Below, piece by piece: positions 37,225 through 62,415 of a stretch of 64,000 bases of DNA (the stretch's first letter is position 1; each line of letters opens with the position of its first letter). Both the position numbers and the translations under genes were made by a program. The stretch is from NCBI GenBank assembly GCA_964449245.1, contig CAYUXY010000003.1:13222-77221 (forward strand). Direction: 5' to 3'. Source of the DNA: an uncultured Candidatus Saccharibacteria bacterium. GTDB lineage: Bacteria; Patescibacteriota; Minisyncoccia; UBA6257; GWB1-50-10. The notes under the pieces were generated by a model. The model worked only from the letters and a program-made list of their open reading frames with translations, ran no database searches and had not been told where the DNA came from.

Positions 37225-37881
37225 TTAAAACTTCGGTTTTTTGATGACCTGCACAACCTTCCCGTTTATCATAAAATCATCGTTTTCGTGGATATAAATA
37301 GGAGGGAAATTTTTAGTAGATTCCGACATTAATACAACTTGCCTGTTTTCTTTATCCAAAAAGAACTTTTTGATATTAGCCATTCCGTCGATAATAGAAA
37401 GCACAATATCACCGTTTCTCGGATGTTTTTCATTTAAATCTATAATCACATAATCCCCGTCTTCTATTCTCTTGCCATTGATTTTCGCTCGGTTCATACT
37501 CGGCCCATTTACCTGTAGCGCAAAGAAACGATGCTCGCCTTTTATTGATCTATCGAGTAGCGTGCTCGATATCCGCAAGAATCCCTCGACATTCGTTTCT
37601 GCAAAAATTTGCGCCGGACCGGCATTCACGGATCCTAATATAGGCACGGACAAAATTTTCCCCATTCCCATAATTCCCTTCTGCCACTCTTGTTCGTTCT
37701 TTTTTATCATTCCTTTTACCTTGTCAATTCTTAAAAGTCCCTTCTTTTCAAGCTCGCCTAAATGATGCTTTATCTTCTGTGGCGACTCTTCTCCTATAAA
37801 CGAGCCGATTTCTCTAAGAGAAAACTGCCCTAAATTTTTTTCCCGCGCGAGTTTTAATAATTGTTCTTGTATTTTGTGCAT
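37225..37881 (-). CDS. lexA: LexA repressor
   Basis: 218 aa; N-terminal winged HTH, GPSM serine and K in S24 peptidase domain (VNGPSMNRAKI...IKKFF). Confidence 0.85.
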   Translation of the reverse strand: MHKIQEQLLKLAREKNLGQFSLREIGSFIGEESPQKIKHHLGELEKKGLLRIDKVKGMIKKNEQEWQKGIMGMGKILSVPILGSVNAGPAQIFAETNVEGFLRISSTLLDRSIKGEHRFFALQVNGPSMNRAKINGKRIEDGDYVIIDLNEKHPRNGDIVLSIIDGMANIKKFFLDKENRQVVLMSESTKNFPPIYIHENDDFMINGKVVQVIKKPKF

Positions 37882-37892
37882 ACCGTTATTGT

Positions 37893-37930
37893 AGCATATT
37901 TTTACGGAAATGGGTCAATATGCCGTAAAA
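37893..37930 (-). promoter_or_regulatory. lexA promoter elements overlapped by an inverted repeat (candidate SOS operator)
   Basis: TTTTACGG (37900-37907) - N15 - CCGTAAAA (37923-37930) overlaps -35-like TTGACC (37913-37918) and -10-like TATGCT/TACAAT just upstream of the lexA ATG. Confidence 0.3.
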
Positions 37931-53590: not shown

Positions 53591-54484
53591 TTATCCGCGA
53601 TCTTGGCAATTGTCTCGCTTACTCTCGTCCCATGCCCTTAATAAAACCCGATGATCTTTCGCAATCTGGTCACATAATTGACTAAATTTATTATTATAAG
53701 ATGAAGCAAAAACCATTTTGTTGCAAAGCTCGACCATAAGTTGACCAATAATATATAAAAATTGCGTTATCCAAAATTTTTCGGTTTTTGTATAACCGGC
53801 CGTTTGGTTAGTAAATCCAATGTGAGTGTAGTCAGAATATATTCGATAATATTTGTTATAAAAATTCTCCGCACCATCCTTTTCCCACCACCGAAAAGTC
53901 TCTACGGAAAGCTCCTCAAAATATTTTTGCTGAAAAATAAAATCAAACTTAGGAAAATCAAAACCGATGTCTTTAATACAGCGTTTAGAGAATAGGATTA
54001 TATCTGATGGAAATAATATATTTTGATCGGTCAATATAGAACCGAGAATGTTAAGAAATCTATCGTATTCTTTTTTTATATCCTTAGATTGCGGAGTAAT
54101 AAATCTATAATAATCGCTATGGCGCAATAAATATTTACCAGTGAATATACCTATTTTTGTTCTTTCGTCCTGATTCAAAAAATAAAGGAATTCTCCATAT
54201 ATTTCCATAAGGATGCGACATAATGGCAAGAAGAAATGGAAATCAGTTTCTTTTTCCGTTTCCAATTTACAAAACAAAAACTCATATTGATCCCAAAAGT
54301 TTTTTATATATAAATATTCGGCCTCTCGCTGAATAGATTCTTTTTGTTCTGCAAGAGGAATGTTCCGTATGTCTGGCTTGATCTTTGTGGGAAATTCATC
54401 AATCTGTTCCTGAGCTATCTTTAACGCAATTTTTATTGCTGTCATATAATTATTATCGTTCATGCATTTATACATCAACTTCAA
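53591..54484 (-). CDS. hypothetical protein (Tyr/Phe-rich, cytoplasmic), divergent from R-M module
   Basis: 297-aa ORF; no recognisable motif. Confidence 0.4.
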   Translation of the reverse strand: MKLMYKCMNDNNYMTAIKIALKIAQEQIDEFPTKIKPDIRNIPLAEQKESIQREAEYLYIKNFWDQYEFLFCKLETEKETDFHFFLPLCRILMEIYGEFLYFLNQDERTKIGIFTGKYLLRHSDYYRFITPQSKDIKKEYDRFLNILGSILTDQNILFPSDIILFSKRCIKDIGFDFPKFDFIFQQKYFEELSVETFRWWEKDGAENFYNKYYRIYSDYTHIGFTNQTAGYTKTEKFWITQFLYIIGQLMVELCNKMVFASSYNNKFSQLCDQIAKDHRVLLRAWDESKRDNCQDRG

Positions 54485-54554
54485 TAAGTAAACGCGACGT
54501 TCTTGTTTTTATACTCAATAAATTTTCTTTCCTTTTGTGTGGATAACCGTGCTT

Positions 54555-54582
54555 TGCTTTTCGGTTTTTGTTCGGTTATATT
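54555..54582 (+). promoter_or_regulatory. candidate promoter of the LexA-methyltransferase gene with TTCGGTT direct repeats
   Basis: TTGCTT (54555-54560) -16- TATATT (54577-54582); TTCGGTT at 54560-54566 and 54571-54577 (11-bp spacing) lie in the spacer. Confidence 0.25.
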
Positions 54583-54615
54583 GGAATTGTAGCACAAATA
54601 GACCTTAAAAACGCC

Positions 54616-56193
54616 ATGCCGAACCTCACAAAAAAGCAAAAGCAAGTCCTTGATCTAATAGACACCTACCTTGATGAAAATGGGATATCTCCAACTATTG
54701 AAGAACTACGAAAAAAACTAAACTTAAAAGCGGTTTCTACTGTTCACGAACATATCGATTCCTTAAAAAGGAAAGGTTACCTCGCTAAAACTGAGAATTC
54801 TATTAGAAGTTTGACGCCAAAAAATAAAATGCGGTCAGTAATTGAGATCCCAATACTTGGGAGTATTAAGGCTGGATATCCTCTACCGGCAATAGAAGAG
54901 AGAGACGGCTCTGTTTCTGTAATAAATCCGCAAATCAGATCATCGGAAGGTTATTACGCACTTCGTGTTGTAGGCGATTCAATGATAGATGATGGTATTT
55001 TTGATGGCGACATCGTTGTTATTAAACATCAGACTGTCGCGGAAAATGGACAAACTGTCGTAGCAATAATTGACGATAACGAAGCAACACTGAAAAGACT
55101 TTATAGAAAAGGGAAAGGGTTTAATCTCGAACCAAGGAATCCTAACATGCAAACTTTATTTAGAACCGACGTTGAGGTGCGAGGTGTCGTCGTTCAAATC
55201 ATAAGCAATATAACCAACCGCCCGGAAAAAAACGTTTTAAAAAAAGCAAAACACGAGCTCAGGACGATTGATCTTTTTGCTGGAGTTGGTGGAATACGCT
55301 TAGGATTTGAAAACGCTGGATTTAAGACAGTCTTCGCAAATGATTTTGAGCCTCAATGCAAAAATACATACGACATAAACTTCAGAGATTCTAAATTGGT
55401 TGTCGAAGATATTAGAAAAATTGGCATTGATGATTTACCCAAATTTGACTTTCTTTTGGGTGGCTTCCCCTGTCAGGCTTTTTCTATTGCAGGATATAGA
55501 CAAGGATTTGATGATAAAAAAGGCAGAGGAAATTTATTTTTTGATATTACTCGAATTTTAGAAGCCAGAAAGCCGGAGGGTTTCCTTTTGGAAAATGTTA
55601 AAAATTTAAAAAGCCACGATGGTGGCAAAACTTTCAAAATTATTGAAGAGGCATTAAAAGACCTTGGCTACCATGTAAAAATTAAAGTCTTAAATACCAT
55701 GGAATACGGGAATATTCCCCAAAACCGAGAAAGGATATATATTGTGGGTTTTAAAAACAAATTATATTCAGATAGATTTGAATTTCCTAGTCCAGTCAAA
55801 TTAACTACAAAAATTACTGATTTGATAGAAACAGATGTTCCGGAGAAATACTACTACAATAGCAAGCCTTTGTTTGAAAAATTAAAAAATTCGATAAAAG
55901 AAGAGGGAAAAATTTATCAATGGCGTAGGCAATATGTCAGAGAAAATAAAAGTGGAGTGTGCCCAACCTTAACTGCAAATATGGGAACTGGAGGACACAA
56001 TGTACCAATCATTAAGGACAAAAAAGGTATAAGAAAACTAACTCCTTTAGAATGTTTCCGAATTCAAGGGTTTCCAAAGAACTATAATTTGCCAAAAATT
56101 TCTGACTCAGCTTTATATAAACAAGCTGGTAATTCTGTTAGTGTTCCGGTTGTTGAGTCCGTGGCAAGACAAATGATGAAAGCGATGGAGTAA
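54616..56193 (+). CDS. fusion protein: full-length LexA-like repressor (winged HTH + S24 autopeptidase) joined to a C5-cytosine DNA methyltransferase
   Basis: N-terminal LTKKQKQVLDLI...GISPTIEEL...KRKGYL (LexA DNA-binding); IPILGSIKAGYP (Ala-Gly site); VVGDSM (Ser); TLKRLYRKG (Lys); then DLFAGVGG (motif I), GFPCQAFSIAG (IV), ENV (VI), QNRER (VIII), AGNSV (X); single uninterrupted frame. Confidence 0.8.
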   Translation: MPNLTKKQKQVLDLIDTYLDENGISPTIEELRKKLNLKAVSTVHEHIDSLKRKGYLAKTENSIRSLTPKNKMRSVIEIPILGSIKAGYPLPAIEERDGSVSVINPQIRSSEGYYALRVVGDSMIDDGIFDGDIVVIKHQTVAENGQTVVAIIDDNEATLKRLYRKGKGFNLEPRNPNMQTLFRTDVEVRGVVVQIISNITNRPEKNVLKKAKHELRTIDLFAGVGGIRLGFENAGFKTVFANDFEPQCKNTYDINFRDSKLVVEDIRKIGIDDLPKFDFLLGGFPCQAFSIAGYRQGFDDKKGRGNLFFDITRILEARKPEGFLLENVKNLKSHDGGKTFKIIEEALKDLGYHVKIKVLNTMEYGNIPQNRERIYIVGFKNKLYSDRFEFPSPVKLTTKITDLIETDVPEKYYYNSKPLFEKLKNSIKEEGKIYQWRRQYVRENKSGVCPTLTANMGTGGHNVPIIKDKKGIRKLTPLECFRIQGFPKNYNLPKISDSALYKQAGNSVSVPVVESVARQMMKAME

Positions 56194-56772
56194 TTACCAA
56201 ACTTTTACTTTTGTTGCGATTGGTTTTATTTTATTCTTTGCAAGAACATCTTTTTTGATACAAAAGCGAGGCCTGCGTTTTTCTTCTTGTTGATCTTTTA
56301 ATGTCTGATTTTTATTTACCTTGTTTTCATAAATTAACTTGCTTGATATCTGATAAATATCAAACTTTCCATCAACTTTTCCTTCGCTATAAAAATCAAG
56401 AAAATACAAATCGTCCCATCTTGATCTTGGCCCAAAAGAAGTCAAATCATTTTCTACACTACAAGCTTTAATTTGTTCTGCCCTCCCTGTTTTTGTGTTG
56501 AAAGTATCAAATGAAGTATTTGATAATCCATATGCCGATATAAAACGAGATGAGCCAGACCAAAGACAGAATGCGACTTCAGAAAGTCCTTCAGGGAAAT
56601 TTGGTTCACGTGATTTATACTCTCGCATACCCATTTTCAAGCCTCTCCATAAATCAAAAGTGGACTTCCATTTCTTTCCGTCTGATTTTGTGAAATCCAT
56701 TATTTCTAACAAACATTCTTCACCAAAGACTTTAGTTTTGATTTTCCGAATGTGCATATAATTACTTAACAA
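56194..56772 (-). CDS. putative small Type II restriction endonuclease (R gene of C-controlled operon)
   Basis: 192-aa ORF convergent with and abutting the methyltransferase (0-nt gap); overlapped at its 5' end by an upstream HTH C-protein gene, the classic C-R arrangement; no family assigned from sequence alone. Confidence 0.4.
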   Translation of the reverse strand: MLSNYMHIRKIKTKVFGEECLLEIMDFTKSDGKKWKSTFDLWRGLKMGMREYKSREPNFPEGLSEVAFCLWSGSSRFISAYGLSNTSFDTFNTKTGRAEQIKACSVENDLTSFGPRSRWDDLYFLDFYSEGKVDGKFDIYQISSKLIYENKVNKNQTLKDQQEEKRRPRFCIKKDVLAKNKIKPIATKVKVW

Positions 56773-56983
56773 AAAAATCCAGCGATTTCTTGTATATTTT
56801 TGCGAACTCTTTCAACTGCAAAACATCAAATCGTCTTTGGCCAGATTCTATTTTTGAAAGATAAGACTGAGTTTTGCCAAGTTTGTTTGCAACTTCTGTC
56901 TGACCAAGCCCAGACTCAATACGCGCCACCTTCAGGCGTTCAACAATTTTTTTATGGTCATCTTGATAAATCGCTCTCGGCAT
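56762..56983 (-). CDS. controller (C) protein, XRE-family HTH
   Basis: 73 aa; GLGQTEVANKLGKTQSYLSKIESGQRR HTH_3; overlaps the downstream ORF by 11 nt. Confidence 0.7.
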   Translation of the reverse strand: MPRAIYQDDHKKIVERLKVARIESGLGQTEVANKLGKTQSYLSKIESGQRRFDVLQLKEFAKIYKKSLDFFVK

Positions 56984-56998
56984 ACATTTATATGATAG

Positions 56999-57020
56999 TA
57001 TTCCATTGTGGATTATTCCA
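56999..57020 (-). promoter_or_regulatory. direct repeats TATTCCA x2 upstream of C gene (candidate C-box/operator)
   Basis: tattcca at 56999-57005 and 57014-57020, i.e. 16-37 nt upstream of the C-protein start. Confidence 0.2.
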
Positions 57021-57097
57021 AATTGCCATATCTTGCTACTCCAACAAAAAAACTCCTATAAATAGGCCTTTTTCAATAACTTTTTAGATGTTATTTA

Positions 57098-57559: not shown

Positions 57560-57599
57560 AAATACTTTTTATTTTTCTGCTTTAAAAACACAATTTTAT

Positions 57600-57985
57600 C
57601 ATTTTTGCCTCGATGCTTGCAATCGGAGAACTTAAAAACCTAAGCTTTAAAATCTCGGTTTTCGGTGGTTTTGCTACTAAATCCGGACAAAGGTCTACCT
57701 GCGGTAGACAGGATTCGCCTACAAATCTCTCCTCGTCGTCACTCGTCGAGTTCGCAGGCCGCCCCTCGCGATTCCGCCTACTGGCGAAATATCGCTGCGG
57801 TCTTCGAATCCCTGTCGCACGCAAAGCAGTTTGCGTGCTTCCGGCACAATTTGTCCCTCGATGTTGCTCGGGACACTTCACCTCGCTTGATAATGTGCTG
57901 AAAGCACTGAGCGAGCGAAGCGAGTCGAAGTGCTGTGTTGTGTGGTCTAGTAACCGCACCTTTCAATCAGTATAAGGCTTTTTTG
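57600..57985. other. G/C-richer segment with no credible ORF; candidate structured ncRNA or decayed foreign gene
   Basis: Composition visibly shifts from the surrounding AT-rich DNA; ORFs open on both strands give non-protein-like translations; palindrome gtctacc-gca-ggtagac (57697-57713); ends with weak hairpin + TTTTTT (57975-57982). Confidence 0.3.
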
Positions 57986-58045
57986 TGTTCCTGTTTAGGA
58001 TTTTACTGACGCCTCTAGGTCTATCTAAGTTTTCTTACTTTACAT

Positions 58046-62103: not shown

Positions 62104-62213
62104 GCTGGCTAGAAACAAAAATCTGCTAGCCAGCGATCTCTTGCGAGACCCATACGAGTTTCCCCGTATGACGCTCAAACGTGCTCTGACTAGCAGATTT
62201 CTACGTTTGAGCG
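62104..62213. repeat. cluster of inverted repeats upstream of serine recombinase (candidate attachment/recombination site)
   Basis: gctggctag-N13-ctagccagc (62104-62134); catacg-N8-cgtatg (62151-62170); cgctcaaacgt-N20-acgtttgagcg (62172-62213); atctgctag / ctagcagat inverted pair. Confidence 0.3.
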
Positions 62214-62415
62214 TTTTAAGACCATGCCGCCAGACGAATCCGAGGGTTTAGGTCCCGCCTTACCGCTAAGTAAGGCTATTCAGTTGTTAATCCAATTTTA
62301 CCGCAATTCGACCTTTGAATCCATTACTCGCTTACTTCGGGATTTAAGTAAAGTAAGTTATCCACTTAGGACGTATGGACTTATCCGGTGGGTTCCGGCT
62401 TTGTTGTGTTGTATG

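Follow-up and report, generated by a model that had tools for sequence, protein, structure and literature searches.

A complete LexA repressor fused to a C5-cytosine methyltransferase, with a predicted operator in its own promoter, in a Type II restriction-modification cassette of Patescibacteria

We have analyzed a 64,000-nucleotide stretch of DNA from an uncultured Candidatus Saccharibacteria bacterium (contig CAYUXY010000003.1, positions 13,222 to 77,221 of the forward strand), referred to here as the window and numbered from its first base. It contains a predicted Type II restriction-modification (R-M) unit in which the modification gene, at 54616..56193, encodes what is, judged by profile and structure comparisons, a single chain composed of a complete LexA (a DNA-binding domain and an S24 autoprotease) and a C5-cytosine methyltransferase. 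An original prediction made from the sequence alone had proposed one uninterrupted frame here, and the open reading frame (ORF) is indeed open throughout. The gene and its parts are as follows.

54616..56193, + strand: LexA-S24-C5 methyltransferase fusion gene, 525 aa, a single uninterrupted ORF
54616, + strand: ATG start codon of the fusion
54616-54807, + strand: DNA-binding domain, from the LexA_DNA_bind profile
54850-55194, + strand: S24 domain, from the Peptidase_S24 profile
54871-54876, + strand: cleavage site Ala86-Gly87, from alignment with E. coli LexA
54979-54981, + strand: Ser122 of the Ser/Lys dyad, from the same alignment
55093-55095, + strand: Lys160 of the Ser/Lys dyad, from the same alignment
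55261-56178, + strand: methyltransferase domain, from the DNA_methylase profile
55471-55473, + strand: catalytic Cys286 of the methyltransferase

Residues 1-64 match Pfam LexA_DNA_bind (PF01726) with 58.7 bits against a cut-off of 23.7 (E 5e-16), residues 79-193 match Peptidase_S24 (PF00717; 96.7 bits, E 9.5e-28), and residues 216-521 match DNA_methylase (PF00145; 309.9 bits, E 3e-92). The first 199 residues score 169.6 bits on the NCBIfam lexA equivalog model TIGR00498, above its curated cut-off of 110.95, and the C-terminal part scores 341 bits on the dcm model TIGR00675. Comparison with solved structures pairs residues 3-195 with Thermotoga LexA (E 2e-28) and residues 213-519 with M.HhaI (E 2.5e-58), and the N-terminal DNA-binding region aligns from residue 2 with the LexA entries 3k2z and 7b5g of the Protein Data Bank. 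The LexA hallmarks claimed earlier are borne out by alignment with E. coli LexA, in which A86-G87, S122 and K160 of the fusion correspond to A84-G85, S119 and K156, as is the ordered series of C5 methyltransferase motifs I (FxGxG), IV (PCQ), VI (ENV), VIII (QxRxR) and X (GNSV). A lysine-rich and variable linker (aa 197-215) has a mean column identity of 0.51, compared with 0.79-0.88 in the domains.

The fusion is not rare. In a large protein collection it is represented by at least 120 clusters (525-529 aa with a few longer calls, 76-100% identity), all with the same three Pfam domains, with sources given as Patescibacteria or Parcubacteria, and with the public names 'transcriptional repressor LexA' or 'DNA (cytosine-5)-methyltransferase 1'. 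A scan of one genome per species recovers the full-length fusion in about 50 genomes at 60-87% identity, almost all of them Patescibacteria; the carriers include Paceibacteria, Nomura-, Vogel-, Giovannoni-, Morani-, Zambryskii-, Uhr- and Magasanikbacteria, as well as Ca. Microsyncoccus archaeolyticus and one complete 743-kb chromosome. The one point in favor of an assembly or annotation artefact joining two genes is that the source of our sequence is metagenomic; the same 525-aa frame recurs in the independent clusters, from many samples and assemblers and including the complete chromosome, and this recurrence refutes an artefact, whose probability we regard as negligible.

At a clustering threshold of 50% identity the fusion is reduced to a single representative and two fragments, suggesting a single origin of the LexA-methyltransferase fusion. 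The other long methyltransferase relatives in this search have RadC heads, Bsp6I-type endonuclease heads or heads of unknown type. A phage origin was considered and is unsupported, as a scan of IMG/VR gave unfused methyltransferase relatives only (68% identity) and no LexA-fused copy. One locus (L053:1606-2577) has a methyltransferase that is 74% identical to the fused ones and is without the LexA part and the operator described below; it keeps a PDDEXK_5 endonuclease neighbor, and its head appears to have been lost naturally.

The gene lies in a unit of about 2.5 kb (approximately 54538-57033) with two further genes on the opposite strand.

56194..56757, - strand: restriction endonuclease (R) gene of the Bsp6I family, 187 aa from the ATG at 56757; the longest ORF extends to a TTG at 56772
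56762..56983, - strand: gene of the controller (C) protein, an XRE helix-turn-helix protein of 73 aa; co-oriented with R and upstream of it
56992..57033, - strand: C/R promoter, whose TGGAATA boxes lie at 57020-57014 and 57005-56999, at the right edge of the conservation between loci
56997-56992, - strand: C/R promoter -10, TATCAT, leaving next to no leader upstream of the ATG at 56983
57021-57016, - strand: C/R promoter -35, TTGGAA

The controller-plus-endonuclease layout proposed earlier holds in its main features. The R protein matches Pfam RE_Bsp6I (PF09504) with 42.9 bits against a cut-off of 25 (E 5.4e-11), the C protein matches the HTH_3 profile (E 2.5e-12), and the methylase stop at 56193 abuts the convergent R stop at 56194 with zero gap; no terminator was found between these two genes. 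The 11-nt overlap of C and R that was part of the same claim does not stand. Homologous R proteins have a length of 187 aa, their start corresponding to the ATG at 56757 rather than to the TTG at 56772, and R therefore probably starts 4 nt past the C stop.

Across carriers the methylase gene always adjoins a convergent restriction gene, which belongs to the Bsp6I family in 24 loci, to the PDDEXK_5 family in four, to the NgoFVII_C type in two, and in the remaining loci to unannotated families, of which there are at least four. With different endonuclease families beside one methylase, the methylase appears to be the constant part of the unit and the endonuclease interchangeable. A C gene is present in 18 loci including the window (51-89% identity in the other 17), always upstream of R, so that the C-R order is common to loci with three different R families; it is missing from about two thirds of carriers. 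The best match of the C protein among characterized C proteins is C.BclI, although this is weak (E 0.0014) and generic XRE proteins score higher. The direct repeat TATTCCA (56999-57005 and 57014-20), reported in the original prediction, is the C-promoter repeat read on the + strand; as TGGAATA-N8-TGGAATA it is conserved in the 18 loci and overlaps the -35 and the spacer, its two copies being direct and not inverted. The genes flanking the cassette vary between carrier genomes, and in the window it lies in a stretch of lower G+C content (0.31-0.36 versus 0.39-0.50), both of which suggest that the unit behaves as a mobile cassette.

Bsp6I cuts GCNGC. This sequence is strongly depleted in the window (70 observed versus 178 +/- 14 expected) and absent from 53.5-57.7 kb, which fits long exposure to a GCNGC specificity, and the cassette probably acts on this target. 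In the window (1-64000) GGNCC is also under-represented (67 versus 96 +/- 9), and CGNCG is not; the shortage of GGNCC, with that of CCNGG given below, may reflect earlier contact with other restriction specificities.

Upstream of the fusion gene we find a predicted promoter with two further elements.

54538..54546, + strand: perfect DnaA-box 9-mer TGTGGATAA, the complement of the consensus TTATCCACA, 7 bp upstream of the -35
54554..54559, + strand: predicted -35 TTGCTT, 17 bp from the -10; TTGCCT or TTGTCT in relatives
54560..54575, + strand: predicted LexA-domain operator TTCGG-N6-TTCGG, a direct repeat with an 11-bp period that fills the 17-bp spacer
54560-54564 and 54571-54575, + strand: the two TTCGG half-sites of the operator
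54577..54582, + strand: predicted -10 TATATT; TATAAT in relatives

The -35 of relatives sits within a conserved GCTTTG block, and the predicted -35 in the window is not called by a generic promoter scan of the window. Conservation between loci begins sharply at TGTGGATAA, and the promoter consensus across loci reads TGTGGATAAc-N4-GCTTTG..tTTCGG-N6-TTCGGTTATAAT. In the leader between the -10 and the ATG (54583-54615) a block aaTTGTAGCgcAAAtagaTTTTtaA is kept in copies of at least 75% identity, and neither this leader nor its equivalent in relatives has a Shine-Dalgarno sequence. A terminator-like hairpin at 54537-54552 and a 7-nt inverted repeat ATAACCG/CGGTTAT were rejected as candidates as they are not conserved in relatives.

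The repeat between the promoter hexamers had been noted in its extended form TTCGGTT (54560-66 and 54571-77), which is likewise conserved in relatives. Among 50 distinct upstream regions TTCGG-N6-TTCGG is exact in 42 and has no more than two mismatches in 48. Across 450 kb of carrier loci it is confined to 43 promoters (0.35 copies expected), and the window has a single copy, with one-mismatch matches there at chance level. The repeat is absent upstream of the unfused and RadC-fused methyltransferase relatives. The recognition helix STV/IHEHI is almost invariant, and the four copies in which it is altered are those with deviating half-sites. In alphaproteobacteria the LexA direct repeat is GTTC-N7-GTTC, and Gram-positive LexA boxes also have a GTTC half-site (PMC4951493); the operator of the fusion, read as nTTC-N7-GTTC, resembles the alphaproteobacterial site. 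We infer that the LexA head binds the TTCGG repeat and blocks RNA polymerase. The idea of autoregulation thereby gains support, as the repeat fills the spacer, is kept despite saturated synonymous change and accompanies only LexA-fused copies.

The 9-mer at 54538-54546, which forms the left edge of the conserved sequence, is the sole exact DnaA-box copy in the window. It is exact in 31 of 48 aligned promoters and has at most one mismatch in 40, lying 9-14 bp before the TTCGG repeat; over 450 kb there are 32 promoter copies versus 11 elsewhere (5.6 expected). DnaA would be expected to bind there. We also considered TGTGGATAA as a C-protein site and rejected this, because it is found in loci without C and is thus kept with or without a C gene; a similar sequence TGTGGATTA near the C promoter is not conserved. 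Locus L039 has three DnaA boxes inside a coding ORF, which is not an origin.

On the same methyltransferase RadC is found as a second DNA-repair-related head, in other Patescibacteria (L060:3305-6561, L061:3227-6482, L062:3230-6482 and L063:3227-6480). These sisters share with the LexA fusion the methyltransferase family (60-63% identity), the position of the junction and an NgoFVII-type R partner, but their N-terminal module is RadC (UPF0758_N plus JAB). They also differ in forming a co-directional operon in which an NgoFVII_C-type endonuclease gene and a Vsr gene follow the methyltransferase, and their promoters have neither the TTCGG repeat nor the DnaA box.

The closest described behavior is that of the SsoII-type C5 methyltransferases, whose N-terminal DNA-binding region binds their own promoter and represses their own synthesis (PMC3978073, PMC6100179, PMC3695355). 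The fusion resembles SsoII, Ecl18kI and EcoRII in being a C5 methyltransferase with an N-terminal DNA-binding region and a flexible linker, with promoter binding predicted for the fusion. However, the SsoII-type head is a helix-turn-helix of about 70 aa, whereas that of the fusion is a complete LexA of about 200 aa with a self-cleaving S24 domain, and the predicted operator of the fusion is a direct repeat in the promoter spacer. In SsoII-type systems R is divergent and activated by the methylase, whereas in the cassette it is convergent and controlled by C, and repression by the fusion could be lifted irreversibly by proteolysis. The likeness to the LexA repressor of the SOS response extends to the full domain set, the Ala-Gly site, the Ser/Lys dyad, a GTTC-type half-site and the equivalog score; the fusion differs in being joined to an enzyme, in lying on a mobile cassette and in having an operator that is seen only at its own promoter.

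In the Esp1396I system a C-R operon converges on the M gene. The cassette is similar in that its C-R operon converges on M and its C promoter is near-leaderless with repeated boxes, but its methylase promoter shows no C-box and carries the LexA-type repeat and the DnaA-box-like site. Esp1396I is one of the C-protein-controlled R-M systems and is listed in PMC3874152.

The conservation of the protease bears on what the LexA part does. Among 50 distinct full-length copies of the fusion, I84, A86, G87 and P89 around the cleavage site, G120, S122 and M123, and T158, L159 and K160 are invariant, as are the methyltransferase motifs I, IV (PCQ), VI (ENV), VIII (QNRER) and X (GNSV). Pairwise dN/dS is lowest in the methyltransferase (0.037), followed by the DNA-binding domain (0.058) and S24 (0.078), with dS of 1.2-1.7. 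The invariant cleavage and catalytic residues and the low dN/dS argue that S24 has been kept as a working protease and not simply as a scaffold for dimerization. One could suppose that the fusion is a constitutive autorepressor, with the LexA module serving DNA binding and dimerization and cleavage being a slow, RecA-independent turnover with no link to damage. This would agree with an operator confined to the gene's own promoter, with the short helix-turn-helix heads that suffice for SsoII autoregulation (PMC3978073) and with the existence of LexA-like proteins with RecA-independent processing (PMC7101444). However, dimerization alone needs neither the cleavage site nor the dyad, both of which are invariant in all 50 copies, with a dN/dS of 0.078 for S24, and by its score the LexA part is a true lexA equivalog. 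We consider simple autorepression unlikely, if the strongest of the alternatives weighed here.

The window has a second LexA-like gene.

37225..37881, - strand: stand-alone LexA-like gene, its product an S24 protein of 218 aa that matches part of the LexA DNA-binding profile
37902-37928: palindrome TTACGG-N15-CCGTAA, unique in the window, overlapping the promoter of the stand-alone LexA-like gene

The original prediction had described this gene as a canonical host lexA, a claim that must be withdrawn. Its product falls short of the lexA model cut-off (100.8 versus 110.95 bits) and is 27% identical to the fused LexA; it belongs to a conserved LexA-like family with at least 120 Paceibacterota clusters at 57-76% identity. 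The arms of the palindrome are unusually distant for a LexA box. Of the two, the fused copy thus appears to be the more canonical LexA. A conserved stand-alone gene with its own palindrome points to a host repressor separate from that of the cassette, so that the host would be served by a LexA-like repressor of its own, for which another site is predicted, and the cassette would add a second, private one.

These observations also bear on whether the fusion could be the SOS repressor of the cell, with a regulon of its own and methylation as an added function. It is the better equivalog match of the two LexA-like genes, and NCBI names its relatives 'transcriptional repressor LexA'. Against this, a separate LexA-like gene is present, the varying flanking genes show that the fusion gene moves with its R-M partners, and neither the 64-kb window nor the 450 kb of flanks has an operator anywhere but at the fusion's own promoter, which gives no sign of a damage regulon with a shared operator. 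A global role thus seems very improbable.

Our preferred reading, to which we give a probability of roughly 0.55, is that the fusion represses its own promoter and that RecA-stimulated self-cleavage lifts this repression, making the cassette a Type II counterpart of restriction alleviation. When the cassette enters a naive cell, the unrepressed promoter would give a burst of methylase while C delays R. The fusion would dimerize through its S24 domain, and a dimer on the two TTCGG half-sites in the promoter spacer would keep methylase synthesis low, following the logic of the SsoII and EcoRII methyltransferases. Filaments of RecA on single-stranded DNA could form through self-restriction at unmodified sites or through repair synthesis, whereupon S24 would cut Ala86-Gly87; imbalance of R-M systems is described to induce SOS (PMC3874152). 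The released DNA-binding head would lose its dimerization partner, the promoter would open and more methylase would be made; transcription continuing into the adjoining convergent R gene may in addition lower R, and the outcome would be a chromosome protected during damage. The original prediction had proposed that damage-induced cleavage derepresses the methylase, and the invariant cleavage site and dyad are consistent with this. The sequence comparisons themselves establish the architecture, its recurrence, purifying selection on every catalytic residue, the conserved operator and the setting with R and C. The steps of the model are drawn from the known behavior of LexA and of SsoII-type methyltransferases; DNA binding, cleavage and RecA-dependence are inferred, as are GCNGC as the target, an input from DnaA and an active methylase after cleavage.

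In Type I restriction alleviation in E. coli (EcoKI) the restriction of host DNA is lowered when damage creates unmodified sites, and ClpXP degrades the restriction subunit. The outcome proposed here is the same, but it would be reached by induction of the methylase through self-cleavage of a repressor, and in a Type II system.

Cleavage could instead have the opposite effect, destabilizing or inactivating the methylase so that the stable endonuclease would cut newly unmodified DNA and kill a cell that has suffered damage or phage infection. In 31 of the 50 copies the released head would have Ile-Ala-Ala as its last residues, and in E. coli cleaved LexA fragments are protease substrates. Loss of the methylase causes post-segregational killing in R-M systems (PMC3874152). 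However, removal of a repressor head should raise transcription and not lower the methylase, the new N-terminus after the cut is that of the S24 domain and not of the methylase, and a loop that kills the chromosome would be costly for the tiny-genome symbionts that widely carry the cassette. We therefore regard damage-triggered suicide as improbable, more so than simple autorepression.

Several points weigh against repression relieved by RecA-stimulated cleavage. All copies of the fusion belong to one clade, so that the co-occurrence of operator and LexA domain is partly a matter of shared descent; with all copies from one fusion event, the comparative case rests on conservation against saturated synonymous change and not on independent origins. 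Some LexA-like proteins, as noted above, cleave independently of RecA. An AlphaFold model of the full protein, built with 25 close homologues, is unusable (mean pLDDT 55, with the S24 region below 35). The GCNGC target rests on the family names of R and on site depletion, and CCNGG is depleted as well (54 versus 115 +/- 12), which makes the depletion argument supportive at most. Finally, recA is not in the window and was seen in one related locus only. That locus is a divergent carrier (L047:1006-2040), with recA about 1.9 kb upstream of the LexA-methyltransferase gene and on the same strand.

A broader version of the damage-triggered reading, which we hold tentatively and at somewhat less than even odds, is that of a Type II R-M system with its own sensor of damage and replication. 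RecA filaments would trigger self-cleavage, or even dock the S24-methylase at repair sites, and the DnaA box would tie the promoter to replication initiation, so that the balance of methylase and endonuclease would follow newly made, unmodified DNA; such a system would have spread horizontally through the Patescibacteria.

Around the cassette, the region 57570-57990 has a G+C content of 0.50 compared with about 0.33 alongside and a fold z of -4.05 on both strands. It contains no domain-bearing ORF and gives no Rfam match at E <= 1, and may be an unannotated structured RNA. A LOOT RNA (RF03000) lies at 62135-62254 on the - strand (87.3 bits, well above the gathering score). A weak DUF5677-like gene (53591-54484, - strand) adjoins the cassette, and another carrier has a clear DUF5677 gene about 7 kb from its cassette (L001:16676-17488); this proximity may be a coincidence or may reflect a loosely linked island gene.

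In the literature searched we found no account of a LexA-methyltransferase fusion, and the architecture stands unremarked in public annotation; it extends the SsoII-type self-regulating methyltransferases with a complete LexA head. To our knowledge, proteolytic, damage-responsive release is not known for any Type II system, and how Type II R-M systems spare their host when repair or replication makes unmodified sites is poorly understood, damage-induced relief being known to us only for Type I enzymes. Should the broader reading, with its sensing of damage and replication, be correct, the cassette would be the first Type II system with a restriction-alleviation circuit built in. A methylase repressed by a self-cleaving SOS sensor would link the SOS signal directly to modification. 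The protein is small and its predicted operator is resolved to single bases, which makes it readily amenable to assays of cleavage, band shift and reporter expression in E. coli. LexA would here be seen in nature as a regulatory head that an enzyme can shed, and the fusion bears on the biology of the Patescibacteria, in which few regulatory circuits are known.

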